Shown: one piece after another, positions 20,588 to 60,254 of the stretch
Numbering within the stretch: position 1 is the stretch's first letter
Layout: every line of letters starts with the position of its first letter
Sequence record: NC_106721.1
DNA: 64,000 bases
Source: Escherichia phage EC148
Reading direction: 5' to 3' (one strand)
Position numbers and translations under genes: made by a program
Notes under the pieces: generated by a model
Seen by the model: the letters and a program-made list of their open reading frames with translations, nothing else
Told to the model about the DNA's origin: nothing
The model's database searches: none

Positions 20588-20603
20588 TATTTGGGATATG
20601 TAA

Positions 20604-37024: not shown

Positions 37025-37061
37025 AAAAACCCCGGTGGATTTTGTCCACCGGGGTTTCTTT
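37025..37061. terminator. bidirectional intrinsic terminator between the convergent early and late operons
   Basis: AAAAA, 10-bp stem CCCCGGTGGA/TCCACCGGGG with 5-nt loop, then TTTCTTT. Confidence 0.8.
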
Positions 37062-42344: not shown

Positions 42345-45178
42345 TCCACAGACTGTTCTCCATCATCTCCTTCTGCTCTAATACGAAAATATAGTTTTCT
42401 ATTTATTCCTAGAGCATCACTGTTATGAAGAGCAAAATCTGCCTTATTATACATTAATAAATAGTCATAAGTATACTGATTTTCAATACGTACACTTCTT
42501 AGCATTCTATTCTGGGAGTCATAGATTTCCAGAGTATAGAATATACTTTCTATTATATCTTCTTCTGGTATCCTATCCCAAGCTAGTTTTACATCTGGGC
42601 CTACAAATTCAGTTACATCCCCAGAAGCCGTATTAGTTACCCTAAAATTAGATACTACACTTAGGTTTTTAGCAGAGTTAAGTTCTATAGATAAGGTTAC
42701 TGGAGAACTTCTTCTACCATTTATATCCACAGCCCTTATTTCAAATATCGCTAAGCCTGCAGGCTCTCCAATTATCTCTTGGATCATGCGTTCATTGGGA
42801 TTTGTTTCTAGTTGCTGCACAATATAAGGCTCAGCATGCCCGGAATGCACGATAGAGTAATAAACTACGTTATTAGTTAAGCTTGGAAGCCAAGATAACT
42901 CACCATTTTTTCCTATAGAACCAACTAAACCACCGGGTGTAGGAGTATATTTAAAATCTCTAGGAGGAAGAACGTTGTTACTAATATCTGGTATATCATT
43001 ACCACTATTATCTACTTGATCAGAGTTGATAAATACATCTTCCCCATACTCCTGTAGAGTAACATTTATCTTTCCTTCTCTAGAGTTTTCGACTTCATCT
43101 ACTAAAAAGTACTTCTTATCCCATCCGTAACGGTCGTATGTAAATGCAATAGCATCGTTAGGCTCAATACCAATGAATTGATATGGTAAAGAAAATGAGA
43201 GGGTTCTAGAATACCTAGATTTCTTAAGTTCTCTGTCTGCAAAACTTCTAGCAGTATAGTAGTTAGTTATATTTGCAAAAGATAATTGTAATTTTTTATC
43301 TAAATTTTTATCCTGCTCTTTATATTTAGAGTTATAAAAGGTAATAGAGTTAGTTTTCCAGCTAAGAGCTGGGTCTACTATGGATGCTTGAACTGAGTTG
43401 AATTTATTTCTACCAGTAGTATCTGATAGCTCTAAATCACCATAAGTATCCAGAAAATTAATCTCTAATGGAGTATTAGAATATTTTTCTACAGTAATCC
43501 TATATTGACCAGATAAGTTGTTAATAGCCCCACCGTAGGATTCTAGTAAACCTTGCACATTTTTAAATACTGATTCAGATGTATCTAGAATAGTATTCAT
43601 TTGTACTATTTGTCTATTTTCTGCTAATGGATCAGTCCACCCAACATATCTCCAGTATGGCTGCCAGGATACTTGGTAAGATTCATCTATAATATCTAAG
43701 ATAGCAGCTTCTTGTACCAATTGTTGTAGGGGGAACTGATCAATAGCAATGTTTGCACCATACCTATCTGAAGTTAAGTAGTCAAGTGTTTGCCAAATAC
43801 CATTTAAACTAGTACTATTAGCAGTTACTCTACCATCAGGATGATAGATTTTTATCTTCTTACCCTGAATCTCAGCACTAACTTCTGGAATCTCAGTTCT
43901 ATTTTCATTAATAGTAAAGCGTACTACCGCGTATGCAGTATCTAATAGTTTATATCTAGCATCCCAGTACTCAGGCCCATTACCGTTCATATTTTGGAGA
44001 TAGAACCCACGTTCCTTCGCTATATTTACTAATACTTCAGAAGCCGTTTGATCAGCTTTTCCATGATAAGTCCAAATCCTTATATCACCATTACCATCAT
44101 TATATTTATATTCCTGACCGTGCACAGAAGGACTACTAGAAGATATTCCTGATGCTATTCTTTGCATGGTGTCTCCTGCTACTTTTTTAACACCGAAACA
44201 GGTTCTAGCAGAGCTATCATTAGAGTCCATACAAATCATAGGGTTATCCCCAAAGGAAAAGTCAAGAAAACCGTCTATCTCTCCTTCAGCAAAAGCGTAT
44301 ACTACGTAAACTATATTAGGATTGTGTAATTCCGTATCCGCAAAAATAGGTATTCCCGGTATTTTCTGTACACCATAAACTACTGGTATATACTTAGCAG
44401 CAAGGTTAAAATCTATATCTACTTCTTTAGTAACAGTCTCATAATACTTTTTAAGACTATAACTTCTAGATAGTCCAAATAGCTTTTTCTTAGACTTTAG
44501 CTTGTATCTTTCTTCCTGTACCTGATACTTTGCTAGAATAGAGATACTTTTATTGGCATGAAAGAACCCATAATCTTCCTGGTATTCAAGTCTTTTAGCC
44601 CCGTTAGATGGAACTAATTGTCCTGCTACAACCTCAAGCCCTCTATGAGAAGCATCATCAGTAAACCTACCGTTAACCCTATCAAAATCATAGAATTGGT
44701 TAGAACAATTCCAAGTAATTGTAGAGGTTCCAACCCCAGAAGTACTAATGTTGTCCTTAATACCTCCACCAGTAATTCTCCCTCTAAAGTATAATAAAGG
44801 GCCATTTGTGTCTGGGTCTACAGGTAAAATAGAACCATCCTCTGTAATAATTGCTTGGTGGATTGATACTAGTCTATCTAAAAAGGATACACCATTCTGC
44901 ACTAATTTCAGTACTTCATCCTGTGCTGTACCTGTAATAGTAAAAGATAGGCTGCCAATAGATAAATCTCTATTTTGTTTATGTGTGCTAATAGACTTAA
45001 CTTTACCGGCCTGGTACAAAATACCATTATATAGTACATCTCTAAAATAGTCAGTTAAGTAAATAAAAGCAGTACTAGTACCTGTAGAGCCGGGTAATTC
45101 TAGAGAAATTAGACTAGCAGTTTTTATTCTGCTATTATTTTTTAAGTAGTTTCTAGCACTATCTAATATTTTTTTCAT
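42329..45178 (-). CDS. baseplate hub protein (pb3-like)
   Basis: 949 aa; size and position between the Dit-like and pb4-like genes. Confidence 0.65.
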   Translation of the reverse strand: MKKILDSARNYLKNNSRIKTASLISLELPGSTGTSTAFIYLTDYFRDVLYNGILYQAGKVKSISTHKQNRDLSIGSLSFTITGTAQDEVLKLVQNGVSFLDRLVSIHQAIITEDGSILPVDPDTNGPLLYFRGRITGGGIKDNISTSGVGTSTITWNCSNQFYDFDRVNGRFTDDASHRGLEVVAGQLVPSNGAKRLEYQEDYGFFHANKSISILAKYQVQEERYKLKSKKKLFGLSRSYSLKKYYETVTKEVDIDFNLAAKYIPVVYGVQKIPGIPIFADTELHNPNIVYVVYAFAEGEIDGFLDFSFGDNPMICMDSNDSSARTCFGVKKVAGDTMQRIASGISSSSPSVHGQEYKYNDGNGDIRIWTYHGKADQTASEVLVNIAKERGFYLQNMNGNGPEYWDARYKLLDTAYAVVRFTINENRTEIPEVSAEIQGKKIKIYHPDGRVTANSTSLNGIWQTLDYLTSDRYGANIAIDQFPLQQLVQEAAILDIIDESYQVSWQPYWRYVGWTDPLAENRQIVQMNTILDTSESVFKNVQGLLESYGGAINNLSGQYRITVEKYSNTPLEINFLDTYGDLELSDTTGRNKFNSVQASIVDPALSWKTNSITFYNSKYKEQDKNLDKKLQLSFANITNYYTARSFADRELKKSRYSRTLSFSLPYQFIGIEPNDAIAFTYDRYGWDKKYFLVDEVENSREGKINVTLQEYGEDVFINSDQVDNSGNDIPDISNNVLPPRDFKYTPTPGGLVGSIGKNGELSWLPSLTNNVVYYSIVHSGHAEPYIVQQLETNPNERMIQEIIGEPAGLAIFEIRAVDINGRRSSPVTLSIELNSAKNLSVVSNFRVTNTASGDVTEFVGPDVKLAWDRIPEEDIIESIFYTLEIYDSQNRMLRSVRIENQYTYDYLLMYNKADFALHNSDALGINRKLYFRIRAEGDDGEQSVEWASI

Positions 45179-45789
45179 AGACTTTCCCGTAAATTTAGTG
45201 AGATGTTGGAGTATGTTCCGTTATTATTTAGTGTAGATCCAAAAGCATCACCATTCATGAGTTTTGTTCTAAATAGGATTCCATTAAATACTGGCTTCTC
45301 CGCTCCAGTAGTAGTTATAAATAAATCAGGGTATAAGTTTATAGACCATGTATTACCTGATTTGTTAAATGATGTTATTTTATATACTTTTGGGTGGTTA
45401 GACAGCTTAAATAGATCCCCCGGTTTTGGGGTACCTGTAAGAAACCCTTTTGTATCCATAGTTATATTAGAACCCTTCTGTCCAGCAGGTATATTTACTA
45501 GACTAGTATTACCTCTAACTCTAAAAGCTTCGTATTGGGGTAATATAACATCTATATAACCACCAGTCCTTTTGTATTCTAGAATAAAAGCATCTAGAAC
45601 ACTATATTCATCTGGAAATAATTCTGGATAAGAAATATTTATACCCCAGTATTGAGCAGATACCTTAACTTCGTTAACTTTACCATTTGGTAACTCATCA
45701 CGAATTACTGGGTCATTATCAATCAGGTTAACACTTTCGAATCCTAAGCCTGAAAGTTCTGGATTCGTGTATGGGTCTGGTAATCTCAT
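45175..45789 (-). CDS. distal tail protein (pb9/Dit-like)
   Basis: 204 aa; immediately downstream of the tape-measure gene; own sigma70-like promoter and AAAGAGGAGAAA RBS. Confidence 0.6.
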   Translation of the reverse strand: MRLPDPYTNPELSGLGFESVNLIDNDPVIRDELPNGKVNEVKVSAQYWGINISYPELFPDEYSVLDAFILEYKRTGGYIDVILPQYEAFRVRGNTSLVNIPAGQKGSNITMDTKGFLTGTPKPGDLFKLSNHPKVYKITSFNKSGNTWSINLYPDLFITTTGAEKPVFNGILFRTKLMNGDAFGSTLNNNGTYSNISLNLRESL

Positions 45790-45816
45790 AGTTAATTTCT
45801 CCTCTTTAATAACAAT

Positions 45817-45845
45817 ATTATAATAGTATTAGAAAATTTTATCAA
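45817..45845 (-). promoter_or_regulatory. sigma70-like promoter upstream of the Dit-like gene (TTGATA-17-TATAAT)
   Basis: Minus strand; located just after the tape-measure terminator. Confidence 0.55.
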
Positions 45846-45862
45846 GAAATTTTTATTTTTCC

Positions 45863-45891
45863 ATAAAGAAAAGGAGGACTCAAAGTCCTCC
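45863..45891 (-). terminator. intrinsic terminator after the tape-measure gene
   Basis: Minus-strand GGAGGACU-UUG-AGUCCUCC followed by UUUUCUUUAUGG. Confidence 0.65.
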
Positions 45892-45898
45892 TCCAGTT

Positions 45899-48800
45899 TT
45901 AAGAATTTCCTAATGTTTTCAGACTAGCACCGTTCTCATTCAGAGCTAATTCTACTGCGTCTCTTAGAGCACTACTATTACTAGAAGCAAACTCTCTAAA
46001 ACTTGCAGCATCCATAGCACTAATATTCAAGATGATAGGTCTTCCTGAAGTTGAGTTAGATGAAGTTTTTAGCTCATCATTAGGTGTAGCTTTCATAGGA
46101 ATCATAGGGGTAACTACTTCTGTACCATGCTCACCCATTTGATAGCTAACCCCAGGGTACATATTACCACCCTCAGCACGAGGAACGAAAGAGTTAGCGC
46201 TACCTATACCTTGATCGCCACGAATATAAGACAGTTCACCTGCATTAGCAGACATGGACACATCTATATTCTTCTGACGTTCTCCTAAGGTTAGGTAACT
46301 AGTTGTATCCGCTCCAGAATCTGCAATACTTGACATACCAGATGCAGAAGATGCTTGAGCAAGAGCTAAGGCACCTGCCAAACCTGCCGCCACCATCAAA
46401 GGAATAGAGAACGGGTACGGTACAGCTGTCGCCGCTTGCATTACAGCTACTGCAGTTTGGATGATGATCTGCTTCTTAGCTGCGTCTTGTTGAATCTTCA
46501 ACTTTTCAGCTTCTAGTTTCTTCAACTTAGCTTTAGATGCTTCTGATTTACCATCACGTTTCTGCTCTGCTGCAATAGCCTGATCAATTGCACTAACCTG
46601 TTGACTAGTACTATATTGAATCATAGAGGCCACAGTCTGCATACCTGCTGCGATCGTGGAAGTAGTGTCTAAAGACCCCATAGAGAACTGAATCATAGCA
46701 TTGGTTAAATTACCCATGCTTTGAGCTACAGCAGTTGCTTCGGAATTTAACTCAGATAGTTTAGAAATTGCCTGATCATAAGAAGCCATTCTATTTCCCA
46801 TATCAGCAAAATCTTTATCTTCTCCAGATAGTCCAGTTGTAGGAGTGTACACAGCACCTAAAGAAGATCCAACAGAAGCTTGCATCTCCGCATTTCTCTG
46901 TGCCCTTAAACCTGCTAGTTGTGCCCTAGTTTCAGCTATCTTTTTATTATATTCCGCTTGTGCCGCAGCATTACCTAATGTTTTCTGCTTTAAGTCTTCA
47001 TATAATTTTAGCTGTTCCTGTAAGCGCTCCGCATTTCCCATTAATGGTTTAGCAGTAAATTGTCTTTGCTGTTCTTCCTCTCTACCAGCAGCCATTGAAG
47101 CAATCTGATCTTGGCGGAATTTCCAGATTTCACGTTCAATTTGGGCTTGAGCACGTCTAGACTGTTCCGCCTCTTTCTGTTTATCAGCTTGTTTTGTATA
47201 CCATTCGTACTTCTCTTTTTCAATGGTCAATTCAAGATTTAACTGTGCTAAACGATACTGAGTATCTGTCATAGTACGGTTATTTAAGAGAGCTATCTCA
47301 CGGTCTACACCCAGAATTTTATCTGTATAATCCTTAACTTTCTTCTGAGCTTCCATACCCTGATTGGTAAGCTTAAGTTTCTCCAGCTGAATTTTTTCAA
47401 TCTCTTTCTCAACAGCTTTATTTCCCTGATTAGTTTGAAGTACACGGCGTAAAGCAGCCTCTTGCTCTTCTAACTGTTGGAGTTCTAAACGCCTACCGGC
47501 TTCCTGTGCTTTTTCTTTATCTTTAGTTTGGTTGTATACGTCAGCTATCTTCTGTTGAACTGCTAACTGGTTCTTAGTCTCATTACCGGTTAGTTTAACG
47601 TACTCAGATAAGGCCTGAGACGCAGTTTTCATTTCAGACAGAGTATTATAGCCTAGGTTAAGGTTTTTAACATACTCGTCTGCACTTTTACCAGTACCTT
47701 GAGATAGTGATTCTATATTTTTTATAGCATCTGCTAAAGTAGCACTAGTCTTAGCAGCAGTATCTGTATTCTGAGCAACGTTCTGTATATCATTAGCTAA
47801 GTCACTAGCAGTTTTCTTAGTCTGATTATATGCCTTTTGTTGTTCAGTTAGTCCTTTTAATACAGTAGAGTTAAAATCGTATACAGCATCAGGATCAGTA
47901 GTATCTCTCTGTAGATTAATCTGTTTCTGAAACTCTGGATTAGCTTTTGCAGCAGCAGCTCCAGCAGCCTGATAAGCTGATTTCCAAGCATTGAGGTTCT
48001 CTGTAGAATCCTCTACTTCCTTACCGAGTCTAGTTACTTGTAGACCCATAGCTGCGGTTTCTTCTACAAACTTTTTATTAGCTTCGGAAGCACCCGCGGC
48101 TGCAATACCAACAGGAATACCTTCACCAACTTGACGTATAGCTAGTTTTGTATAGAAATCTGCTTGTTCCATTCGTTTATCGAACTCAGATTTTAGCTTA
48201 TTACGCTTATCAAGAGATTCCTTATACATATCTAGAGCTTTATTATAGCCTTCTTCAGAAGCAGCTAAACTTAAAGCAACAGCACCAACGTTGGTAGGGT
48301 CTATCTGTCTATTAGTTTTTTCTTGAGCTCTAGCTGCCTCAGCAGATATAGAAGCCTGAGATGTATAAAATACTGTGTTGATAGCATCAATTACTGGCCC
48401 TAAATACTTAGCAGCAGCTTGTTGTATTTTTCTTAGTGCAGCATCTGCATTAGCAGCAAATTGCTCCCATGGAGTTGCACGTAGTACTTCATCTAGATAG
48501 CCAAACCGTTTAGTAGATTCAGCAATTACTGCATTAGCATATGCTTGTTGCTTCTGGAAAGTGGTAAGACTATTAACATTATATGTTATACCTGTGTTTG
48601 CAGCATTTAACTGTTTAACATAATCAGCGTATGCGTCATTAAGACGGATAGTGACACCAAGTTCATCCAGAAGTTCGATTTCTTGTTTAGATACGCCCTT
48701 AATTACACGGTTAAGTGCATCAGTCATATCAACGCCAAGAACAGCAGCCGCACGACGAGCTACTAAACCAAATTTATTAAGTTGTTCAGCATCAAATCCA

Positions 48801-49579
48801 TAAGCAGATGCTGAAGATGCCTGTCTCATTGCTTCCTCAAAAGAAATAGCATATCCAGCAGCTTCTTGTAGTGATCTAGCAAGGGTCTGAACAGGAGTAC
48901 CTGTCTGAGTACCTACTATAACACCAAATTTTTCTAGACGATTTAGCTGATCACCTAGTTTAAGTTGTTCAAATGCTGATTGCAAAACGAAGATGTTGGA
49001 AGCAAGAGCTGCGTACATAATAGGTAGACTACCACCGATCTTAGCCATTGCCGCAAAATCACGAGTTGCACCACGTGCTGAACCAGAGGTATTACCAATA
49101 GCTCTAGAAGCTCTACCAGCGGCACCAGCAGTGTCGTTAAAACCTCTAGCTGTACCACCTAATGCTCTATTAGTATCGTATAATCTATCCTGGACTTTTT
49201 CTGTTGCAGCTGCAACATCATTACCCATTGTTTTAACAGATCTAGAAACTCCATCAAATCCAATTTCTAGTTTATCTGTTACTTCAATAAGTTGGATAGC
49301 CAGGTAATCTAGCTTATCACCAATACCATCAATGGATTTAGTAATACCAGCCATACCCCTACTAGCTTGCATTTTAGTAAGACTTTTCGCTGCTCTGTCT
49401 GCTGCCCTCTCAATGGAATAAAGAGTTCTGGGCATTTTACCTAACTGCTCATTTGTCAGTTCGGAAGCAGCAGCAGCATTTTCCAACGCATCAGATACGT
49501 TTTCAATAGACTTTGCAGTACGAGTTGCCCCCTTCTGTTTAACGTCTATTAGTAATTCTCGTATTAGCTTATCAGTCAT
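45899..49579 (-). CDS. tail tape measure protein (pb2-like)
   Basis: 1226 aa; largest tail-module ORF; Ala/Gln-rich, charged, helix-prone composition. Confidence 0.85.
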   Translation of the reverse strand: MTDKLIRELLIDVKQKGATRTAKSIENVSDALENAAAASELTNEQLGKMPRTLYSIERAADRAAKSLTKMQASRGMAGITKSIDGIGDKLDYLAIQLIEVTDKLEIGFDGVSRSVKTMGNDVAAATEKVQDRLYDTNRALGGTARGFNDTAGAAGRASRAIGNTSGSARGATRDFAAMAKIGGSLPIMYAALASNIFVLQSAFEQLKLGDQLNRLEKFGVIVGTQTGTPVQTLARSLQEAAGYAISFEEAMRQASSASAYGFDAEQLNKFGLVARRAAAVLGVDMTDALNRVIKGVSKQEIELLDELGVTIRLNDAYADYVKQLNAANTGITYNVNSLTTFQKQQAYANAVIAESTKRFGYLDEVLRATPWEQFAANADAALRKIQQAAAKYLGPVIDAINTVFYTSQASISAEAARAQEKTNRQIDPTNVGAVALSLAASEEGYNKALDMYKESLDKRNKLKSEFDKRMEQADFYTKLAIRQVGEGIPVGIAAAGASEANKKFVEETAAMGLQVTRLGKEVEDSTENLNAWKSAYQAAGAAAAKANPEFQKQINLQRDTTDPDAVYDFNSTVLKGLTEQQKAYNQTKKTASDLANDIQNVAQNTDTAAKTSATLADAIKNIESLSQGTGKSADEYVKNLNLGYNTLSEMKTASQALSEYVKLTGNETKNQLAVQQKIADVYNQTKDKEKAQEAGRRLELQQLEEQEAALRRVLQTNQGNKAVEKEIEKIQLEKLKLTNQGMEAQKKVKDYTDKILGVDREIALLNNRTMTDTQYRLAQLNLELTIEKEKYEWYTKQADKQKEAEQSRRAQAQIEREIWKFRQDQIASMAAGREEEQQRQFTAKPLMGNAERLQEQLKLYEDLKQKTLGNAAAQAEYNKKIAETRAQLAGLRAQRNAEMQASVGSSLGAVYTPTTGLSGEDKDFADMGNRMASYDQAISKLSELNSEATAVAQSMGNLTNAMIQFSMGSLDTTSTIAAGMQTVASMIQYSTSQQVSAIDQAIAAEQKRDGKSEASKAKLKKLEAEKLKIQQDAAKKQIIIQTAVAVMQAATAVPYPFSIPLMVAAGLAGALALAQASSASGMSSIADSGADTTSYLTLGERQKNIDVSMSANAGELSYIRGDQGIGSANSFVPRAEGGNMYPGVSYQMGEHGTEVVTPMIPMKATPNDELKTSSNSTSGRPIILNISAMDAASFREFASSNSSALRDAVELALNENGASLKTLGNS

Positions 49580-49594
49580 GTTTTATTTTTCCCA

Positions 49595-49628
49595 ATAAAA
49601 AAGGCTCTGGGCAAATCACCCAGAGCCA
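49595..49628 (-). terminator. intrinsic terminator between the chaperone genes and the tape-measure gene
   Basis: Minus-strand GGCUCUGGG-UGAUUUG-CCCAGAGCC followed by UUUUUUAUUGGG. Confidence 0.65.
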
Positions 49629-49662
49629 AGCCTCATCGTGGAACGCCCATTGGAGGAAACTT

Positions 49663-50031
49663 TTACCGTGCACGAGATCTAGCATGTGGCTTAACGTTAG
49701 GAATCCTTCCGTTTTGCGGTTTATGCTGCTCAGCACGCTTACGTGCAGCATCTACAGCTTTAGCATCAAATATATTGATAATGTGTAGAACGAATTCTTT
49801 TTCTATAGGATCAGTAATCCCATAAATATCAAATAAAACACCTAATGCAGCCTTATCCTTACCTATAAAAATAGGGAAGTCACCCGGTATGAAACAGTCA
49901 ATTAGACTGTTATAAATATTCATACTAATAGATACAATAGGTGGAAAATCTTCGAGTTCAACGGGCATAGCCTTAGGATCAGGCTCTATACCCATTGACT
50001 CGCAAAGTATTAAATATTGTTGTTTAGTCAT
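49663..50031 (-). CDS. putative tail assembly chaperone (122 aa)
   Basis: Position immediately upstream of the tape-measure gene. Confidence 0.4.
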   Translation of the reverse strand: MTKQQYLILCESMGIEPDPKAMPVELEDFPPIVSISMNIYNSLIDCFIPGDFPIFIGKDKAALGVLFDIYGITDPIEKEFVLHIINIFDAKAVDAARKRAEQHKPQNGRIPNVKPHARSRAR

Positions 50032-50092
50032 TTTAGATGCTGAGCTTTTAATACATTTGTCTGCAAAATCAGCAACAGCATCTAGGAGTTCT

Positions 50093-50497
50093 TTACGCTT
50101 TTGGGCTACGAAAAGTGTCTAAGTGGAACACTGTTTGGTTGATCCAAGAATCAAACGCAGCAGAGTTCTGCATAAGCATTACAGCATTATCGCGGCTAAA
50201 AGGAACTTCAGTAGCGGGATCAGCATCTGTTTCAATCAGCATCAGTTTTTCAACGTCACCTACAGTCAAACCAGTCCAACCTTTAATAGCTGCGTCAACA
50301 AATGCTTCAATGAACTTATCATCATCCTGCACTTGTATCAGTGTACCATTAACCCATTCGTCACGTTTAGCAGAAGAAATAACACGTTTAGAGGTAGCGC
50401 GAGACATATAGTTAAGTTCTAGTTTAAAGTTTGGCATACCTGGGTAGGAAAGAGTAATAGTACGAGTATCAAGAGTAATATCTTTTAAATTAATCAT
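50093..50497 (-). CDS. putative tail assembly chaperone (134 aa)
   Basis: Position between the tail tube and tape-measure genes. Confidence 0.4.
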   Translation of the reverse strand: MINLKDITLDTRTITLSYPGMPNFKLELNYMSRATSKRVISSAKRDEWVNGTLIQVQDDDKFIEAFVDAAIKGWTGLTVGDVEKLMLIETDADPATEVPFSRDNAVMLMQNSAAFDSWINQTVFHLDTFRSPKA

Positions 50498-51393
50498 TTT
50501 TTAATTTCTCCAAAGAAATCTATTCTCACTGGGTCTGAAGAAGCAGTAGGTATAATATCCCACTCAACTCTATACACATCTGAGAAATCTAGGCGTTTTG
50601 TAATACGTGCTGAAGGAAAATCTATAGAAATATTATTATTTCTTATATTTAAAGGTACATCTACCTCTGGTTCGACATTGTAAACCATATCTCCTGCAAA
50701 ACGTTTTAAGTAATATAGAGAAATAGTTGCCGAAGCATTCATTTCATTTACATAAGCTCTTTTATTATTATAGATTTTATTTATATCAAAAACACTCTTA
50801 TCTTCTCTCCAAGAGCACTGCTGCTGGAAAGATAAAGAGGCAGAGATAAGACCTGGTAAGACGCTACCATTAGTAGAAGCTATTACTGGGCTATAAGACA
50901 TTACTTCACCCTGTATAATAGAACCTGCTTCTCTATATGTAGATACTTCGGAAAATTTCCCCGATTCAATACCAACATTAAGAATTGGTATGTTCTTATC
51001 TAAAGAAAAATCTACCGTAGATACATAACAGTTTTCAAAATATACACAGTTATTATCTTTATTTACTATATAGATATTGAACATAATAGGTTCAATATTA
51101 TTACTATATAGTGGGAGTAAGAAAGTATTACCTTTTCTATCAAAACCTAACCATTCAAAGAAGTTAGCCTCAGTAAGAGTATTACTGAAATTTACTGCTA
51201 GAGAGATAGAAGAGGGGGTTTGAGCATTTATAATAGAGTCTGCATAGTTAGTTCTACGATGAACAGTCCTACGAAGAGTCTTGAATTCCTCGTAGGAAGT
51301 CTGTATATCATAGTTTGATAGGGCATCAAAATGAAATGCCCTACCATCATACTCAACTATAACTTTTGACTCTCTCATTAGAGAGTAGTACAT
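50494..51393 (-). CDS. minor tail protein (p140-like)
   Basis: 299 aa; ATGA overlap with the downstream gene. Confidence 0.45.
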   Translation of the reverse strand: MYYSLMRESKVIVEYDGRAFHFDALSNYDIQTSYEEFKTLRRTVHRRTNYADSIINAQTPSSISLAVNFSNTLTEANFFEWLGFDRKGNTFLLPLYSNNIEPIMFNIYIVNKDNNCVYFENCYVSTVDFSLDKNIPILNVGIESGKFSEVSTYREAGSIIQGEVMSYSPVIASTNGSVLPGLISASLSFQQQCSWREDKSVFDINKIYNNKRAYVNEMNASATISLYYLKRFAGDMVYNVEPEVDVPLNIRNNNISIDFPSARITKRLDFSDVYRVEWDIIPTASSDPVRIDFFGEIKK

Positions 51394-51397
51394 TTAA

Positions 51398-52804
51398 TTA
51401 GCCACCAGCAGTAACTGTAATGCTCTTAGTACCTTCTACACCAGAACCGTCTTTAGCTACAGCTTTGACAGTAACAGAACCTGTCTTAGTAGTGTCCGCA
51501 GTTAATAAACCAGATTCTGGATCAATTGTAGCTGCATCACCACTAGAAATAGACCAAGTTACAGCACTATTAGTAGCATCTGGCGGAGTTACTTCAACAG
51601 ACATCTGTAGAGTATTACTGTTCTGTACTGAAGTAGCATTACCAGCAGATTTAACTGTGATTGATTCAACTAGTTTTGGTGGAGTTTTAGCTCCATCTCC
51701 TGTAGCAATCAGATTAGCCACAGTGGTTTTAGTATACTTGTTAGAGAAACCAAGATAACCTTCATCACCAGTATCCAAATCTGTAGGGATAGCTTTAAAC
51801 TCTACTGAAGTACCAAGTACATCATCAGTCTCAATAGTAGGAATGTTAACGTGAGCCTGTTTAGCAACCAGCACAGCTGCCGGACGTTCATCATCGTATT
51901 CACCACCAAGGATAAGTGCGATTTCAAACTTGTTAACTACCTTCAAGGTTTTGATAAGATCTTTGTACAGTTCCATAGAACCAAGAGATTTATCATTTAG
52001 ATAGGCAGTTAGTGAACCAGTTAATTCAAATGCACCAGTAAATGAACCGATCGGAATATTTACACGGGACATAATATTCGGGGTTAGGTACGTGATGTTG
52101 TTATTAATGGTGAAAGTACCACCAGTAATAGGGATATCATATGCCTTATCAGAATCCATATCCTTAATTTTCAGGATAGTCAGTTTGTTCTTAATATAAG
52201 AACTCTGAATAGTCATATAAGTTTCATCATCAATACCTACAGTATCAGGATCAAATGGTTGCTCATCCAAAGGAATAAGCTGGTTACCATTACCTGACCA
52301 AGTTACACGACCAATATCCTCAATATCAACGTTAACTTCTGCCTGGTTGATCTGGCAAGAGTCGATGTAACTCCATGCTTTGTCAGTCAGGATGTAGATA
52401 TGCAGCATTGCCAGTTCGTGGTACGCGTTATCTTTAAAGTTAACCATAAAATTGGTTTCGTTATTATGTGCTCCTGTGTCACCTTCTAGGTTAAGAGCTT
52501 TACCACTAGAAAGAGCGTGCCATAACATATAGTCAGGAACAATCTGTTTGTTAGTAGTTTTATCTTTATACGGAAGGATATAAGTAGAGAAACTCCACTC
52601 AGCCGCGTTTAAAGAGTCATTAAAACGTTTAGAACCACGAGTTGGACGCGGACCAGCTTCATTAACAGTAATATCTGTTGAGTTACTGTCCTGACCCCAA
52701 GAAATATCATCCTGAACTAGAATCTCTTGCGTGTTGGTCTTATTATGACCAGTCTTAACCGTAGACACGAAGATTCGAGTATTACGTAATAGTTGTAAAG
52801 ACAT
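51398..52804 (-). CDS. tail tube protein with C-terminal Ig-like domain (pb6-like)
   Basis: 468 aa; C-terminal Ig-like segment ...SVTVKAVAKDGSGVEGTKSITVTA; host-optimised codons. Confidence 0.7.
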   Translation of the reverse strand: MSLQLLRNTRIFVSTVKTGHNKTNTQEILVQDDISWGQDSNSTDITVNEAGPRPTRGSKRFNDSLNAAEWSFSTYILPYKDKTTNKQIVPDYMLWHALSSGKALNLEGDTGAHNNETNFMVNFKDNAYHELAMLHIYILTDKAWSYIDSCQINQAEVNVDIEDIGRVTWSGNGNQLIPLDEQPFDPDTVGIDDETYMTIQSSYIKNKLTILKIKDMDSDKAYDIPITGGTFTINNNITYLTPNIMSRVNIPIGSFTGAFELTGSLTAYLNDKSLGSMELYKDLIKTLKVVNKFEIALILGGEYDDERPAAVLVAKQAHVNIPTIETDDVLGTSVEFKAIPTDLDTGDEGYLGFSNKYTKTTVANLIATGDGAKTPPKLVESITVKSAGNATSVQNSNTLQMSVEVTPPDATNSAVTWSISSGDAATIDPESGLLTADTTKTGSVTVKAVAKDGSGVEGTKSITVTAGG

Positions 52805-52830
52805 TTAATTATTTTCTCCTAATCTGTAAC

Positions 52831-53316
52831 TTATCTGCGAAGTGACCTACGTGGAGGCTGATACCTCACTGTTACATTTATTTCTGCTAAACCATATGGG
52901 GCCAGTAGACCCTCATCTGTACTAACTGATGTAATGATCATATCAGTTGCCTCACATGGGAAGATCGATCCATTAGGTTTACTAACAGTATATTCTAAAT
53001 TTCCACCTGTGTCAATAACGGTTTTTATATCCGCTACGAGTTTTTCAAGTTGCTCTTGAATGTCTGTTTTCTCTTTATCGTACACCAGGATTGGAAGTTC
53101 TAAAAACATCCACTGTTGGCCTGAAGGAAGATACTGCCCAGTTTCAGTTCCGATATGAACTGCCACATAAGGAAACTCTCGTATTTCCTCAAATTTATAA
53201 GTTTGACGAGAAACGTTTCCATATAGGTTATTAAAATATTCGTCAGGTTGAGAACCGTCCAACTGTTTAGATATACGGTCAACCAGAGCTTGTGCAATAC
53301 TTGTTCTATGATCCAT
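52831..53316 (-). CDS. tail terminator protein (p142-like)
   Basis: 161 aa; position between the head-completion and tail-tube genes. Confidence 0.45.
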   Translation of the reverse strand: MDHRTSIAQALVDRISKQLDGSQPDEYFNNLYGNVSRQTYKFEEIREFPYVAVHIGTETGQYLPSGQQWMFLELPILVYDKEKTDIQEQLEKLVADIKTVIDTGGNLEYTVSKPNGSIFPCEATDMIITSVSTDEGLLAPYGLAEINVTVRYQPPRRSLRR

Positions 53317-53319
53317 TTA

Positions 53320-54087
53320 TTAGGTTCCTTGATTAACCTTGATTTTATATCTAGAGTGAATCAGGTCTCTTGCAGCTTTTGCTATAGCCTCACCAATAAG
53401 TTTTTGTGGGTTTCTAGCACCTGGGTAGGGTCGTAAAGATAATCTTCTATATGTAGATACTGCTGGATTAAATACAGAATATGGACGTACCATATAATTA
53501 TACGTCACGTTTAGTTCGGGGGCACCTTTACTAGTCTCTGCATCCCTAAGCATAACATCTTTAATTTTTAGAGAATTTGCAAATCTACCAGTTCTAAACT
53601 TTAATGGCGCTCCTGCCTTTTTCATATCTTTTATCAAATATTCCTTAGCAACTATTTCAAGAATAGTACGCATATTACTATTTGATACAAAACGACCGGA
53701 AGCACCTGTTACTGCACCAGAATAACCATCTTCCACATCTCTAGGATCACCGAAGTTTACCTGTACTCTACCTGTAGAACGTTTTTTACCTACAGCAGAT
53801 TTTTTACCAGCGGTTGCTTGTATTAAGTTCTCTAGAGCACCTAAATCTCCCGAAAGATCTAAACTAGAGGATACCGCTTTTAGTATAGAGGCTGTTCTAA
53901 CATCAAGAAGATCTTGTGATACGGGTTTTGAAAACTTAAAAGATACTTGAGCAACAGTACCATCTCTGGTAGGATCTTTTAACCCTGTCTCAACAGAGTA
54001 CACAACAGTATTCTTATTATTTTCAGATCGTCCTGCAGTATCTAGCTGCTCTTTAATAATTTGTTTAGCTAGATCGGAAAGAGACAT
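53320..54087 (-). CDS. tail completion / connector protein (p143-like)
   Basis: 255 aa; assigned by position. Confidence 0.4.
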   Translation of the reverse strand: MSLSDLAKQIIKEQLDTAGRSENNKNTVVYSVETGLKDPTRDGTVAQVSFKFSKPVSQDLLDVRTASILKAVSSSLDLSGDLGALENLIQATAGKKSAVGKKRSTGRVQVNFGDPRDVEDGYSGAVTGASGRFVSNSNMRTILEIVAKEYLIKDMKKAGAPLKFRTGRFANSLKIKDVMLRDAETSKGAPELNVTYNYMVRPYSVFNPAVSTYRRLSLRPYPGARNPQKLIGEAIAKAARDLIHSRYKIKVNQGT

Positions 54088-54599
54088 TATACTCTCCTGT
54101 ATACTTCAATAATAGTACGAATATGCTCTGGAATACCAGACTTAGTGCTATTGAAGGTTACTGTTTCACCACCAATTGTTTTAGCTTGGCGATAATCTTG
54201 TTTATGCCAATGATCTACTAGCATACACGCTGCTAACTTAAGATCTTCAGGCACTGGGTTAAATCCACCTTGTGTATACGCTACGTCCATATAACCTTCT
54301 GGAGGATTAAATTTGAGAAGGATAATACCGTCAGAGTATAGTTTATACTGCTCTGGGTCAATCTCATTATCATTAATCGTCACTTTAGTTACGGAGGTAG
54401 CAGATGGTGAACTCAGAAAATATTTCCTACGTGTAGGTTTTGTATTGATTAACTGGTCTACCGCATCAGCATCATCCATGCCTAGAAGGCTCGTAATCAG
54501 CGCATTGGCAGCAGTAATCATCATTTCTACACCGGATTCTAGTTCAGGTCGCTTTAAGCTACCATATAATCTATAATCTTCGGCTGTAATGATTTGCAT
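54087..54599 (-). CDS. head completion protein (p144-like)
   Basis: 170 aa; immediately downstream of the capsid terminator. Confidence 0.45.
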   Translation of the reverse strand: MQIITAEDYRLYGSLKRPELESGVEMMITAANALITSLLGMDDADAVDQLINTKPTRRKYFLSSPSATSVTKVTINDNEIDPEQYKLYSDGIILLKFNPPEGYMDVAYTQGGFNPVPEDLKLAACMLVDHWHKQDYRQAKTIGGETVTFNSTKSGIPEHIRTIIEVYRRV

Positions 54600-54611
54600 T
54601 TATTTTTCCCC

Positions 54612-54640
54612 AATAAAAAAGGAGAGCCGAAGCTCTCCTT
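54612..54640 (-). terminator. intrinsic terminator after the major capsid gene
   Basis: Minus-strand GGAGAGC-UUCG-GCUCUCC followed by UUUUUUAUUGGGG. Confidence 0.75.
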
Positions 54641-54659
54641 ATCGGCTGAAAAGCCTGTA

Positions 54660-56036
54660 TTAAGATGCAGCGTAAGCACCAGATACAACGCCGTTATTAA
54701 AGTAACGTTGCAGGTTAACACGCTGAGTAACGTAGTACGCATCACGCTGTTTACCAGCTTGGCGCTCACGTTCAACAGTAACAGCACGCTGACGCGGCAT
54801 TACGAAGTTATCTTTATAAACAATAACTGCGAACTCTGCAGAGTTAGCTTTAGCCGGGAAGAACTCAGAAACTACAACCGGCAGACCGTAAATACGACCA
54901 ACCTGACCTTGCAGTTTAACAGCATCATTACCAACTTGGGCAACATCCTGCCATTCTTCATCTTCCAGCAGATCGTAATAAGCATCCATAGATACAATCA
55001 GTACCAGTTTGCTCAGTTTCAGACCATGACGGCCCAGTTTACGGCGCAGTTTAGAGATAGTTTTAGCAGTTACCAGAACAGAACCATCAGCTTTAGCTTC
55101 AGTAATAACTTTAGCACTATCGCCTTCAGCCAGTTTCAGCAGACCCTTAGGCTTACCAGTACCGTCACCAGTCATGAAAGCTTCTTCGATAGAAACAGCG
55201 TGTGCTTCAATCAGACGCTTACGCAGCAGCGGTAGCAGGGAGAAGATTGCATCTTCTTCAGTTTCATCAGTAATGAAGGACTTAGCAGCCAGTTTATAGG
55301 TTTTGAACTGAATTTCAGTCAGAGCACCTTTAACTTCGTCACCAGTAGTAGCATCAGTACCATATGCGCTAGCATCTACCCAAGTAGCTTTACCAGCATC
55401 TGGTTCAACCAGCATAGTAAGAATTTTGCTGGACATTGGCAGTTCTTCAAACAGAGCACCAACTACTAGTTCTTTCTGCAGGTCACGAATAATACGCTGG
55501 GAGAAAATAGTTTCGTAGCTTTCACTAGAAACTTCTACTGAAGAGGACTGGTTTACAGTTTTCAGGTGTCTCTGGCCATGTTCGGTATCAAATACACCTT
55601 TTTCCATCACGTAAGACAGAAGAACCAGTTTTTCAACTTCATCTTCAAAGTTTTCCTGAGTACCGTACAGTGCTTTAGCTACGCTATCACCAACGAAGGA
55701 ACGACCTTCACGAGCTGCTAGCAGAGATTTGATTTCGTCCTGAAGACCAACAATAGTTTCCTGCTGTTTTTCTACAGTCTGTGCAAACAGTTCTGCGCTC
55801 TTCTTAGATTTCTCATCCAGGGATTTAACCAGTTCCAGAGCTTCTTCTAGCTTCTGACGATCTTCGCCAACTGCTTTAGAAACCAGGTCATTCATACGAG
55901 CCAGTTCTTTTTCTTCCTGCTCTTTACGCATACGTTCAGCTTCAGCAGCTTTCTGAGCAGCGGTCAGACCTTCCAGAGATTTAGCCAGATCACCCAGACC
56001 AAGTTCTTCTTTCAGCTTATTAATATCAATAGTCAT
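54660..56036 (-). CDS. major capsid protein with N-terminal scaffolding domain (pb8-like, HK97 fold)
   Basis: 458 aa; coiled-coil N-terminal ~150 aa then capsid-like body; host-optimised codons; strong terminator downstream. Confidence 0.85.
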   Translation of the reverse strand: MTIDINKLKEELGLGDLAKSLEGLTAAQKAAEAERMRKEQEEKELARMNDLVSKAVGEDRQKLEEALELVKSLDEKSKKSAELFAQTVEKQQETIVGLQDEIKSLLAAREGRSFVGDSVAKALYGTQENFEDEVEKLVLLSYVMEKGVFDTEHGQRHLKTVNQSSSVEVSSESYETIFSQRIIRDLQKELVVGALFEELPMSSKILTMLVEPDAGKATWVDASAYGTDATTGDEVKGALTEIQFKTYKLAAKSFITDETEEDAIFSLLPLLRKRLIEAHAVSIEEAFMTGDGTGKPKGLLKLAEGDSAKVITEAKADGSVLVTAKTISKLRRKLGRHGLKLSKLVLIVSMDAYYDLLEDEEWQDVAQVGNDAVKLQGQVGRIYGLPVVVSEFFPAKANSAEFAVIVYKDNFVMPRQRAVTVERERQAGKQRDAYYVTQRVNLQRYFNNGVVSGAYAAS

Positions 56037-56053
56037 TTTTAAATAATTCTCCG

Positions 56054-56686
56054 TTATTCTTTAACGTAGCCTAAAGCTATCGCAAGTTTTTCTAGTTCAG
56101 AAAGATTACGTTCTTGAGCTGGGACAGCTTTAGAACTTATTGCAGTAAAAGATTTACGCCATTCAGTATAATCATGACCATTCATACTCTTAGCGAGATT
56201 GAATGTTGAGTCCTGATTACAAGGTACAGAAACTACCGAAACTTCGTATAGTTCTAAATCTTTAATAATAAATATATCAGTAGCTTCATCCCACTCTGCA
56301 TCTAGGCAGCGGAATCCGATACTAAAAGTTTTCAGTACACCGTTTTTAATTAGCGAAAAGATAGCCGGGTCAGAACTTTCATAGATCTCACATTCGATTT
56401 CGAGACCCATTTCAGTAGGATTAAGATCAATACACTTGCCGATTGGACGACGATGGTCGTGTCCGAAAAGAATAATCGGGTTTTTCATGTAGTTAGCAAG
56501 TGCATTAGATGTTTTCCATGCAGAGGCAGGAATTACATCACCAGCGCGATCTTTACTAATTGTATTAGCGAATCCACGGATTTTTACAACACCCTCTTTG
56601 GATTCGCTATCAATAGATTTAATATAAGCATCTAAATGAACCGGTGCTGATTTTAACTTGTTATAGTCAATAGCAGCTTGTGTCAT
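56054..56686 (-). CDS. prohead maturation protease (HK97-family)
   Basis: 210 aa; FGHDH motif; located between the portal/decoration and capsid genes. Confidence 0.7.
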   Translation of the reverse strand: MTQAAIDYNKLKSAPVHLDAYIKSIDSESKEGVVKIRGFANTISKDRAGDVIPASAWKTSNALANYMKNPIILFGHDHRRPIGKCIDLNPTEMGLEIECEIYESSDPAIFSLIKNGVLKTFSIGFRCLDAEWDEATDIFIIKDLELYEVSVVSVPCNQDSTFNLAKSMNGHDYTEWRKSFTAISSKAVPAQERNLSELEKLAIALGYVKE

Positions 56687-58386: not shown

Positions 58387-58823
58387 TATAAGAACCTTGC
58401 GAATCCTGATTTTGTTTCAGTCTTGACTTGTGTCTTTTCTTGAGGATTCTGTAATTTGTCTTTCTGCTTTTGAACCCACACTTTTTGCTTATTAGCAGAA
58501 AATAAAGGAGGTTCTTTTGTGTAAACCTTATGTAATAATTGGTGATGGTGTACACAAAGGGTAACAGTGTCTTCTACTAGCTCATGCCTATATCGATCAT
58601 AGAATGCCGTCCTATTTGAAAGGACTATTTCTTCGTCAGTGAAATCCAATTGGAGTTCTTTAGCAAATTTTTTAACTAGTAGAGACACCGTATGGTAATG
58701 ATGAAGCTCTAATTCTTCAGCACAACCGCAGATAGCACATTGAGAGTCTTTTTTATATTGACTTTTTATTCCGTCTCTCATAAGGGATATAGCATCGCGT
58801 TTATATTTTATATTGCTTGCCAT
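58386..58823 (-). CDS. HNH endonuclease
   Basis: CAICGCAEELELHHYH ... CVHHHQLLHK (HNH/Zn motif). Start set at ATG 58823..58821 (GAGGAG RBS) instead of the ORF-track start at 58910. Confidence 0.7.
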   Translation of the reverse strand: MASNIKYKRDAISLMRDGIKSQYKKDSQCAICGCAEELELHHYHTVSLLVKKFAKELQLDFTDEEIVLSNRTAFYDRYRHELVEDTVTLCVHHHQLLHKVYTKEPPLFSANKQKVWVQKQKDKLQNPQEKTQVKTETKSGFARFL

Positions 58824-58937
58824 AGTGTTCTCCTCAACTGTATGAATATAGTATACATAATCGTATCGAATTTGTAAAGGGGATTTTAAAATGCAGGAAT
58901 GGGATACCAACTGAGTAGTATCCCTTCCTATACTTAT

Positions 58938-60254
58938 TTATTTACCACGGGAAATAGAGTAAATTCCATAGCGCAGAGCATCACAGAGGTGAGAGTTAGC
59001 ATCATGACGTGGTTTTTCACGTGATAATTTTTCTTCACCTTCTTGGAAATCCCACTTGTAATTCTGCAATGCGTGAATTAATGAGGAACATGAAGCATCC
59101 ACAATAATCTTGCCTTGTTGGAATAGTGCTTGTAAACATGCTAATCCATCTAGGACAGATTTTTTAGCTGGAGCCGATGCAATTTCATGTTCATAAGCTA
59201 AGTCCTGACGGAACTGAGCTGCGGCAGAGTCAACAAAAACACGATCAACTTTATAACGATCTATACAGTGCTGAATGTAAGCCGCATGCTGAGCTGTGGT
59301 TTTCTCCGCCTGCTGGTACTCTTCTAATACATAGTAGGTATCTGTATCATAGTGGTACTTAATAGTAAGAACTGCTGTAGGATCACGATAACCAACGTCA
59401 ATACCAAGCAACGTTTCGAATGCTTCATCATCTTTAAAGAAGTGACGCATACCTTTAAGGTCTTTAACATGGTCTATAGCATTAAAGGTATCAAAGATCT
59501 GACCTTCGAATACAGAGAAGTCAGCCTCATATTCCTGACGAAAGTAGTTTTTACTAACTGTACGACGTGCTTCTTCGATATCATTCAGATCAGCACGTGG
59601 GTTATCACGATACGTACCATGAATAGATACCCAGTTAGGTAATGTATCATCAAATCCATAGGCATAAAACTCTTTAAACCAGTTACCACCACGAGGAGTA
59701 GAGATAAATAGAGCCTTAGAGTTTGGTTTATCTAGGGTAGGACGCAACTGAACTCTAAAGGCATCACCACCCACATCGGAAATTGCCGCCTCATCAAAGA
59801 TGATAAAGTCATATGAACGCCCAACTGCGGAGTCAGCCTGCGCCGCAGAAGCTAGTTTAAACAGAGAACCATTAGCTAACTCAATCTCTTTATCTTTAGC
59901 ATTCTCACGTTCGGTTTGTAGGCCATATTTTTTAATAAGACCACGAATCTGAGACCATCCGATGTTGGCCAGTGAGTAGTTAGGAGCAACTACTAGCACC
60001 TTTACGTTAGGCTCCAGCAACTTTAGAAACCCAAGTGTGTATGCGATGAAGGATTTACCTACACGGCGTGATACACACGCCGTTACAAAACGATGTCTAG
60101 GGTCTTCTAGCGCATTGATAATCGCTATTTGAGGACCATTAGGTGTAATACCCTCTTGAGCTAGTATTCCTGAAACAGGTAGACGAAAGAAACGTTTGTC
60201 TATTCCGAAATCAATAACATCAACTGTGTTAACGTAGGGTCTTGATACTTCCAT
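58938..60254 (-). CDS. terminase large subunit
   Basis: 438 aa; P-loop VSRRVGKSF; C-terminal nuclease-like half. Confidence 0.85.
   Translation of the reverse strand: MEVSRPYVNTVDVIDFGIDKRFFRLPVSGILAQEGITPNGPQIAIINALEDPRHRFVTACVSRRVGKSFIAYTLGFLKLLEPNVKVLVVAPNYSLANIGWSQIRGLIKKYGLQTERENAKDKEIELANGSLFKLASAAQADSAVGRSYDFIIFDEAAISDVGGDAFRVQLRPTLDKPNSKALFISTPRGGNWFKEFYAYGFDDTLPNWVSIHGTYRDNPRADLNDIEEARRTVSKNYFRQEYEADFSVFEGQIFDTFNAIDHVKDLKGMRHFFKDDEAFETLLGIDVGYRDPTAVLTIKYHYDTDTYYVLEEYQQAEKTTAQHAAYIQHCIDRYKVDRVFVDSAAAQFRQDLAYEHEIASAPAKKSVLDGLACLQALFQQGKIIVDASCSSLIHALQNYKWDFQEGEEKLSREKPRHDANSHLCDALRYGIYSISRGK

Follow-up and report, generated by a model that had tools for sequence, protein, structure and literature searches.

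The 64,000-nucleotide stretch of DNA analysed here (the window) belongs to a T5-like phage (Tequintavirus), and three gene junctions on its minus strand are of interest: the capsid/head completion junction (S1), the chaperone/tape-measure junction (S2), and the tape-measure/distal tail protein junction (S3). The gene names that the original prediction had assigned from the letters alone were confirmed; the 170-aa product downstream of S1 matches the Pfam head completion protein family HCP (E = 1e-78), and the 1226-aa gene downstream of S2 carries a tape-measure annotation in a database record that is 100% identical over positions 45000–55000. The three predicted hairpin-motif units were likewise found on the minus strand at the positions first proposed; each consists of a strong hairpin and T-run terminator, followed by the 11-mer GGAAAAATAAA. 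This 11-mer occurs in three exact copies in the 64-kb window, all of them on the minus strand and 3′ of these hairpins, compared to an expectation of approximately 0.06 copies per strand, and it is absent from the remaining 44 kb of the genome; the genome-wide search that had been suggested as a check thus confines the motif to the late block, and a chance origin of the three copies is excluded. Among 25–28 close relatives, the intergenic elements at S1 to S3 differ at 1–3% of positions, and the flanking third codon positions in the same phages differ at 11–28%.

The S1 hairpin (54619–54640, minus strand; 9 bp with a UUCG loop, AAGGAGAGC-TTCG-GCTCTCCTT) begins 19 nt past the stop codon of the major capsid protein gene (54662–54660), with a folding energy of about −14.5 kcal/mol, or −19.4 kcal/mol when a small upstream hairpin is included. 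The S2 hairpin (49603–49627, minus strand; 11 bp) lies 3′ of the tail chaperone genes and begins 35 nt past the chaperone stop codon, and the S3 hairpin (45870–45894, minus strand; 10–11 bp) begins only 4 nt past the tape-measure stop codon (45901–45899). Folding energies across the three sites range from about −14.5 to −19 kcal/mol, and a U-tract follows directly after each stem (TTTTTTATT at S1 and S2, TTTTCTTTAT at S3); in 12 of the 14 lineages compared, no gap separates stem and T-run. S1 to S3 are the three best terminator-like sites between 42 and 60 kb, also in a separate scan of our own. Bidirectional terminators were considered and rejected upon reading the sequences, as no T-run follows the hairpins on the opposite strand.

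Terminators occupy the same three junctions in Sugarlandvirus, in Erwinia phage KEY, in Vibrio and Aeromonas phages and in metagenomic relatives, and the S3 junction carries one in all lineages examined. For S2, RNAalifold on 11 lineages recovered 10 base pairs, six of which show compensatory (double) changes. At the S1 junction, hairpins are found in about 18 lineages with differing stem sequences, and stem positions 3–8 are occupied by several pair types; this comparison is based on folds of the individual sequences and on base-anchored pair counts. No structure was obtained by RNAalifold from S1 sequences aligned with MAFFT, an alignment in which the stems did not line up. The S1 hairpin and its flank are nearly identical in phages whose capsid proteins share just 56–70% identity, a degree of conservation that exceeds what a generic terminator needs. 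Since each site combines a hairpin, a U-tract and a co-oriented intergenic position, and the helix covaries at S1 and S2, S1 to S3 are predicted to be canonical Rho-independent terminators, whose termination efficiency we infer; literature searches on T5 and T5-like phages yielded no usable transcript 3′-end or RNA-seq mapping.

At S1 and S2 the sequence past the hairpin runs directly into the next gene, whose ribosome site occupies these 20–25 nt. The S1 hairpin is followed by TTTTTTATTGGGGAAAAATAA and the head completion ATG at 54599; this interval (54600–54620, minus strand) comprises the T-run (54620–54615), ATT, GGGG (54611–54608) and an A-rich spacer, AAAAATAA (54607–54600). The S2 hairpin is followed by TTTTTTATTGGGAAAAATAAAAC and the tape-measure ATG at 49579, and the corresponding interval (49580–49602, minus strand) comprises the T-run (49602–49597), ATT, GGGA (49593–49590) and again an A-rich spacer; the motif parts at these two gene starts are GGG(G/A) and AAAAATAAA. 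The predicted duplex of the S1 GGGG with 16S rRNA has an energy of −5.5 kcal/mol at 7 nt from the AUG, and that of the S2 GGGA −4.2 kcal/mol at 9 nt from the AUG, within a range of −0.1 to −9.3 for late genes. In diverged Demerecviridae the same layout is found with canonical GGAG or GGAGG in place of the G-run; at S1, the variants GGAG, GGAGG, AGGAG and GAGG occur, and the element that follows the T-run lies 3–10 nt from the ATG in 18 distinct sequences. In close relatives the G-run varies from GG to GGGG and the spacer from 8 to 12 nt, variation that fits a spacer and not a fixed binding site. The degenerate pattern GGRRAAAWWWA has nine sites versus 2.3 expected, and six of these stand directly in front of genuine start codons, namely those of the tail tube, chaperone 1, distal tail protein, tape-measure and head completion genes and of one early gene. 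At S2 of wild-type T5, a gene of 760 bp with a CapR/T5orf172 domain is inserted between TTTTTTATT and GGAAAACATTAG-ATG, so that the G/A-rich half (GGAAAAC..ATG) remains with the tape-measure gene and is parted from the terminator. Close packing of a terminator against a start codon is not specific to the late region either, since an early-region terminator on the plus strand (20564–20580) is likewise followed by ATTTGGGATATGTAA-ATG.

These observations identify the G-run at S1 and S2 as the predicted Shine-Dalgarno sequence for the gene that follows; the unstructured, A-rich stretch would be its spacer. The motif does adjoin two start codons, as originally noted, but the Shine-Dalgarno sequence that seemed to be displaced there is not missing; it is the G-run itself. 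Similarly, the two copies do belong to translation initiation regions, yet of a common phage ribosome-site pattern and not of an unusual kind. As for the suggested low expression, the S1 and S2 ribosome sites are just moderately weak relative to those of other late genes, and the Shine-Dalgarno strength of the head completion gene is near the late-gene median; the ribosome site alone is therefore not clearly setting low expression.

The S3 hairpin is followed by TTCTTTATGGAAAAATAAAAATTTC, and the motif precedes no start codon, which removes any Shine-Dalgarno role at this site; the T-run and GGAAAAATAAAAATTTC (45846–45869, minus strand) form instead an upstream region resembling an UP element. 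The adjoining sigma-70 type promoter, TTGATA-17-TATAAT (45817–45845, minus strand), matches the consensus at 11 of 12 positions, and the S3 A-tracts fall at about −40/−44 and −46/−50 relative to it. It may correspond to PG25, a classical late promoter. Downstream, the distal tail protein gene starts behind a strong ribosome site (ATTAAAGAGGAGAAATTAACTATG; 45787–45810, minus strand; −9.1 kcal/mol). A promoter-like site after the S3 terminator is shared by the 13 sequences compared, namely those of this window, of wild-type T5 and of 11 diverged lineages; 11 of the 13 have an exact TATAAT. In every one, the 24-nt stretch preceding the −35 hexamer contains an A-run and is 62–92% A+T. T5-like promoters carry an AAAAATT in the −43 region (PMC3326045), and AAAAATT at S3 ends 3 nt upstream of the −35 hexamer, as in the published description; an UP element has been described for T5 late promoters (Fig. 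S5 in PMC7472727), among which PG25 and PJ5 have been mapped (PMC7472727). The A-rich part of the S3 copy is accordingly assigned, from its sequence and position, as a predicted UP-type “−43” region of a sigma-70 promoter. The S3 copy alone belongs to this published class of T5-type promoters (PMC3326045; PMC7472727), and differs from its published members in that its upstream region overlaps the T-run of the preceding terminator.

Two further elements lie in the block. A sigma-70-like promoter, TTGACA-17-TATACT, is located within a gene (52987–53015, minus strand), some 200 nt ahead of the tail tube gene. Of 16 diverged lineages, 13 have a recognisable counterpart (exact hexamers in 10, TTGACA-17-TATAAT in lineage L080, TTGATA or TTGACT in three), and the residues encoded there vary; this promoter is likely the start of the transcription unit that S2 is predicted to end. 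The second element is a conserved noncoding CCUCC box (GTTTCCTCCAATGGGCGTTCCACGATGAGGCTT; 49628–49660, minus strand), located past the chaperone stop codon and ahead of the S2 terminator. A coding role for this box, as a frameshift extension or a leader ORF reading through the terminator, was rejected, as every reading frame is closed in at least one lineage; the terminator-crossing ORF of this window is absent from KEY and from lineages L030 and L080. An Rfam search of positions 45000–56500 found no family match; the single sub-threshold chance match lies elsewhere. It is very improbable that the S1 hairpin with its flank and, above all, the invariant UUUCCUCC box form a phage-factor site or a small-RNA seed that controls translation of the tape-measure gene or of other genes; in the small-RNA version, the seed may resemble an anti-Shine-Dalgarno sequence, and the RNA may be a 3′-terminal product of the tail tube-chaperone message.

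The restriction of the 11-mer to three sites in the late block, far in excess of the expected 0.06, and its very strong conservation among close relatives would be accounted for by one dedicated late-gene cis element, either a late promoter or a binding site for a phage factor, at all three sites. Yet downstream of the first two copies there is no usable −35/−10 pair, the best candidates lacking key −10 bases, and a transcript starting after a motif that adjoins the start codon would miss that codon and could not encode the gene; the late-promoter proposal thus survives for the third copy only, as the A-rich flank of the sigma-70 promoter downstream. The proposal that the motif would recur in relatives holds to the same limited extent, since it is near-invariant in close relatives, but diverged lineages do not share the 11-mer and have only the layout of T-run, Shine-Dalgarno sequence, spacer and ATG in common with it; the exact 11-mer is a feature of the T5-like group only. 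The variable G-run and spacer lengths and the lack of an intact S2 motif in wild-type T5 also argue against a fixed element. Finally, the resemblance of S1 to S2 is no closer within a genome than between genomes (mean edit distance 6.2 and 6.7, respectively; permutation p = 0.18), a result that does not support concerted evolution or gene conversion between the two sites either. A single dedicated element at all three sites is, on balance, extremely improbable. The anti-termination role that had been considered for the motif is not supported, since the motif lies 3′ of the U-tract and would be transcribed after the termination decision; a search of the late region's sense strand revealed no boxA-like sequence.

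Explanations that act on the RNA or on termination itself bear on the same segment. RNase E sites typically lie in a U/A-rich segment beside a stable hairpin, and the segment between hairpin and ribosome site is predicted to be unpaired at S2 and S3 and, less clearly, at S1. RNase E-type processing in this single-stranded segment, possibly alongside termination, is nevertheless rather unlikely, as the U-tract and the ribosome site fully explain the segment; the same degree of doubt applies to the version in which a retained 3′ hairpin would protect the upstream message, with faster decay of the message downstream. RNase III is disfavored, as hairpins of 9–11 bp are too short. Work on the T3 and T7 early terminators has established that downstream sequence affects intrinsic terminators, and A/T-rich DNA beginning with ATT or TAT follows all three terminators here and most of their orthologues; but other T5 terminators precede different sequences, and at S2 of wild-type T5 the DNA after TTTTTTATT is unrelated, which makes it improbable that the A/T-rich DNA past the U-tract is kept mainly for tuning termination efficiency. 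A reading of the sequences also reveals complementary U- and A-rich stretches (UUUAUU and AAUAAA) on both sides of the G-run in S1, S2 and several relatives, which could pair in read-through RNA, hold the Shine-Dalgarno sequence in a loop and act as a translational operator; since such a helix would consist of A-U pairs only, does not appear in the thermodynamic fold of S2, and is expected from base composition alone, this operator is barely credible.

The repeated motif is therefore ordinary gene-expression punctuation, and neither a new regulatory element nor a single element shared by late genes; very probably, it combines ordinary signals placed directly one behind another, within a model of leaky terminators. 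The three copies are alike because a U-tract followed by purine- and A-rich sequence typifies both the T5 ribosome site and the region upstream of its promoters. The exact 11-mer identity of S3 with S1 and S2 is closer than A-richness alone predicts, and is left as coincidence or old common descent.

In the proposed mechanism, most RNA polymerases would stop after the genes for high-copy proteins, that is, the capsid protein and the tail tube protein with the chaperones, and the released mRNAs would carry a protective hairpin at their end. Since the gap from terminator to start codon is too short to accommodate a promoter, read-through by a minority of polymerases would be the sole transcription route for the head completion, tail completion, tail terminator and tape-measure genes, and these low-copy proteins would consequently be made in small amounts. 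The capsid protein is present in 13 copies per asymmetric unit, and each virion contains 12 head completion proteins, six tail completion proteins and three tape measures (PMC10713586). After the tape-measure gene, transcription would be stopped and restarted from the conserved promoter. As a caveat, the proteins served by the strong promoter and ribosome site downstream of S3 are present in just 3–6 copies, and copy number is thus not the whole logic of this arrangement.

Comparable arrangements are known from other systems. In phage T7, the terminator T-phi after major capsid gene 10 is a partially efficient intrinsic terminator that follows the most abundant structural gene, and so is the terminator after major coat gene VIII of filamentous phages; in both cases, minor structural genes downstream rely on read-through. 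These phages use other polymerase systems or belong to other phage families than the T5-like phages, where, in addition, just ~20 nt separate the hairpin from the next start codon and two junctions show this arrangement. In the Escherichia coli rpsU-dnaG-rpoD operon, the internal terminator T1 and a poor dnaG ribosome site hold a low-copy protein at a low level; this is a cellular operon with less tight spacing than in the T5-like phage. Within the phage family, the records of Klebsiella phage Sugarland (MG459987.2) and Erwinia phage KEY (MZ616364.1) have terminators annotated after the capsid gene and before and after the tape-measure gene, and the Sugarland record (MG459987.2) places a ribosome_binding_site feature directly after the first two; the sequence similarity between the sites is not pointed out in either record.

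The practical value of these results is modest, and they reveal no new mechanism; they provide a map of transcription units for the structural region of T5-type phages. On this map, one or more upstream promoters would serve the capsid gene, followed by a leaky terminator and the low-copy head and neck genes; the intragenic promoter would then serve the tail tube and chaperone genes, followed by a second leaky terminator, the tape-measure gene and a third terminator, after which the conserved promoter would serve the tail-tip genes. The map holds across the Demerecviridae and helps to annotate and engineer these phages, being useful for engineering since cargo placed at these junctions would alter the dosage of structural genes.

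The late structural block of Escherichia phage EC148 is read from the minus strand and runs from the receptor-binding protein, terminase, portal, decoration protein, protease and major capsid protein (54660-56036), through head completion (54087-54599, the protein confirmed by Pfam), tail completion, tail terminator protein, tail tube (51398-52804) and minor tail protein, to two chaperone ORFs, tape measure (45899-49579), distal tail protein (45175-45789) and baseplate hub. The stretch 45000-55000 matches 549 phage records and shares 100% identity with Escherichia phage T5_ev212 (LR597659.1, Tequintavirus). This identity does not hold throughout the window; a 675-bp ORF between the large terminase and nicking endonuclease genes of LR597659.1 is absent, and a 114-nt gap with a promoter-like TTTACA-17-TATACT (58878-58850) is left at 58823-58938. 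Where the plus-strand early and minus-strand late genes converge, the strongest hairpin of the window (37028-37056, both strands; 12 bp, -22.8 kcal/mol, T-runs on both sides) is probably a bidirectional terminator.

Three minus-strand sites inside this block combine a terminator with a shared motif: S1, between the major capsid protein and head completion genes (hairpin 54640-54619, then TTTTTTATTGGGGAAAAATAA and ATG at 54599); S2, between the chaperone and tape-measure genes (hairpin 49627-49603, then TTTTTTATTGGGAAAAATAAAAC and ATG at 49579); and S3, between the tape-measure and distal tail protein genes (hairpin 45894-45870, then TTCTTTATGGAAAAATAAAAATTTC). They are the top three terminator-like sites within 42-60 kb, and all three sequences of the original prediction, a repeated terminator-coupled late-gene motif, were recovered in place. 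Their common 11-mer GGAAAAATAAA, expected by chance about 0.06 times per strand in 64 kb, occurs three times in the window, only at S1-S3, and a search of the other 44 kb of the genome found no copy. Among 25-28 close relatives the intergenic elements diverge by 1-3%, versus 11-28% at the flanking third codon positions, which indicates, on comparative sequence evidence, that they are real and under selection.

S1 and S2 were compared in 29 close relatives and some 60 more distant ones, whose regions were located by probing with the tail tube protein and with an alignment of capsid proteins; the annotated entries for Klebsiella phage Sugarland, Erwinia phage KEY, Aeromonas phage Akh-2 and Vibrio phage Brizo were added. 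Within the set, capsid proteins are as little as about 50% identical, or 34% in a few metagenomic contigs. The post-capsid junction is laid out uniformly as hairpin (-15 to -21 kcal/mol), T-run (directly abutting the stem in 12 of 14 lineages), G-rich element, 3-10 nt spacer and ATG. Stem sequences at this junction vary between lineages with pairing retained, and six of the ten pairs in the S2 stem show compensatory changes (RNAalifold). The G-rich element has textbook Shine-Dalgarno forms (GGAG, GAGG, GGAGG or AGGAG) in diverged lineages and is now GGG, GGGG or GGGA in the T5-like group; in the window its predicted pairing with the 16S 3' end gives head completion -5.5 kcal/mol and tape measure -4.2 kcal/mol, within a range of -0.1 to -9.3 kcal/mol over the late genes (median near -6). 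This pairing, together with the forms in relatives, places a moderate to weak Shine-Dalgarno element inside the motif, against the original view that the motif stands in its place. The A-rich half is this phage's normal spacer; GGRRAAAWWWA occurs at nine sites (2.3 expected), six of them directly ahead of real gene starts, and the genes so preceded include tail tube, chaperone 1 and distal tail protein. Close relatives carry two to four G and spacers of 8-12 nt, a length variation that fits the behaviour of a spacer rather than a fixed recognition site. Directly upstream of the S1 terminator, a small hairpin (54641-54655, minus strand; GGCT-TTTC-AGCC, then GAT) covaries (GGC..GCC, GGCT..AGCC), and its GCCGA is retained in Sugarland, KEY and four other relatives (L066, L067, L070, L080).

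No start codon was found after the S3 copy, which is followed by TTGATA-17-TATAAT (45845-45817, minus strand; 11 of 12 consensus positions) and then by the block's strongest type of ribosome site, that of the distal tail protein gene. All 13 sequences compared (the window, wild-type T5 and 11 diverged lineages) have a sigma-70-like promoter after the tape-measure terminator, 11 of them with an exact TATAAT, and each carries an A-run within 24 nt upstream of the -35 hexamer. Counting from the hexamers puts the two A-tracts of the S3 motif at roughly -40 to -44 and -46 to -50, positions that match the '-43 region AAAAATT' of T5-like promoters (PMC3326045) and the UP element that the legend of Fig. 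S5 in PMC7472727 assigns to T5 late promoters. The GG of the S3 copy is GC in KEY, GA in L066 and absent elsewhere; since it is not retained, it plays no Shine-Dalgarno part at S3. The promoter just upstream of ATTAAAGAGGAGAAATTAACTATG, the distal tail protein ribosome site (45787-45810, minus strand), may be the classical PG25. This ribosome site has the exact letters of that in pQE/ASKA-type expression-vector primers (13 papers), a match that suggests a natural origin, in a T5 late gene, for the commercial 'synthetic RBSII'.

A single dedicated late element common to S1-S3 is unlikely on several grounds. In wild-type T5 (L024/L049), a 760-bp gene for a CapR/T5orf172-domain protein is inserted exactly between TTTTTTATT and the GGAAAACATTAG-ATG of the tape-measure gene, leaving the T-run beside the S2 terminator and the G/A-rich part beside the tape-measure gene; the halves of the motif are thus separable and belong to different signals. 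G-run and spacer lengths vary even among close relatives, and S3 has a promoter in place of a start codon. Nor is the packing of terminator against ribosome site late-specific, as it is found in the early region too, where a plus-strand terminator (20564-20580) is followed by ATTTGGGATATGTAA-ATG (gene start 20604; region 20564-20606). The likeness of S1 and S2 is no greater within than between genomes (permutation p = 0.18), and so reflects a family-wide layout rather than a lineage-specific co-evolving pair. What this account does not fully explain is that the 11-mer identity of S3 with S1 and S2 exceeds what shared A-richness predicts, and that the S1 hairpin and flank are near-identical across lineages with capsid proteins only 56-70% identical. 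Some phages, but not others, carry mobile-nuclease-like genes of 650-760 bp, with CapR plus T5orf172 / treble-clef domains, at the S1 or S2 terminator junction (at S2 in L024/L049, at S1 in L005, L017 and L023); in SP3-like phages the insertion lies between capsid stop codon and terminator.

The functions first proposed for the motif were partly right: a translation-initiation region describes S1 and S2, with their Shine-Dalgarno element, spacer and ATG, and not S3; a promoter describes the context of S3 and not S1 or S2. Anti-termination fits none of them, as such sites act upstream of terminators and the motif lies downstream, and no boxA-like sequence was found on the sense strand of the late region. 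A hairpin between U-tract and A-tract was not supported by folding, and no Rfam family matched. Alongside the attenuation by leaky terminators proposed below, RNase E could cleave the single-stranded U/A segment, or the A/T-rich downstream DNA could affect termination efficiency. The S1-S3 arrangement is already known in kind, since the Sugarland and KEY records annotate terminators at all three junctions with ribosome sites directly after them, in Sugarland at the first two, and published T5 promoters have A-rich upstream regions, as at S3. A similar logic is seen in T7, whose T-phi terminator follows gene 10, in filamentous phages, which have a terminator behind gene VIII, and in E. coli, where dnaG is preceded by a terminator and a poor ribosome site.

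The interval from the chaperone stop codon to the S2 terminator holds a noncoding box, GTTTCCTCCAATGGGCGTTCCACGATGAGGCTT (49660-49628, minus strand), unique within the window and without an Rfam match. Despite indels of 1-2 nt, the TTTCCTCC box is retained across Demerecviridae genera, from T5 through to Aeromonas phages, and in altered form in Vibrio phages; no reading frame across it is open in all lineages. It can pair with a downstream G-run (GAGG or GGAGG), and its sequence resembles an anti-Shine-Dalgarno partner of that run. The two chaperone ORFs (49663-50497, minus strand) resemble a frameshift pair of the G/GT type. No Shine-Dalgarno element (dG -0.1) precedes the second ORF (ATG at 50031), whose frame, open from 50118, overlaps the last eight codons of the first in the +1/-2 frame; CCCAAAAG lies at about 50104.

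A further sigma-70-like promoter, TTGACA-17-TATACT (53015-52987, minus strand), with ATATAAAAAC upstream, lies some 200 nt ahead of the tail tube gene, within the gene for the tail terminator protein. Of 16 diverged lineages, 13 have a recognisable version of it (exact hexamers in 10; TTGACA-17-TATAAT in L080, and TTGATA or TTGACT as -35 in three lineages), and the residues encoded across it vary throughout. The terminators, promoters and ribosome sites are present as signals, and with strengths as predicted the block would most likely work as follows. Because S1 and S2 each lie too close to the following start codon for a promoter to fit in, the genes for head completion, tail completion, the tail terminator and the tape measure would be transcribed only by read-through polymerases, with the S1 and S2 terminators acting as leaky attenuators that would also give the upstream messages a protective 3' hairpin. 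This model matches virion copy numbers: the capsid protein is present at 13 per asymmetric unit, whereas a whole virion has 12 copies of head completion protein, 6 of tail completion protein and 3 of tape measure (PMC10713586). The promoter at 53015-52987 probably lifts transcription once more to serve the tail tube protein, which is abundant, S2 would close the unit begun there, and S3 with its promoter would open the tail-tip unit.
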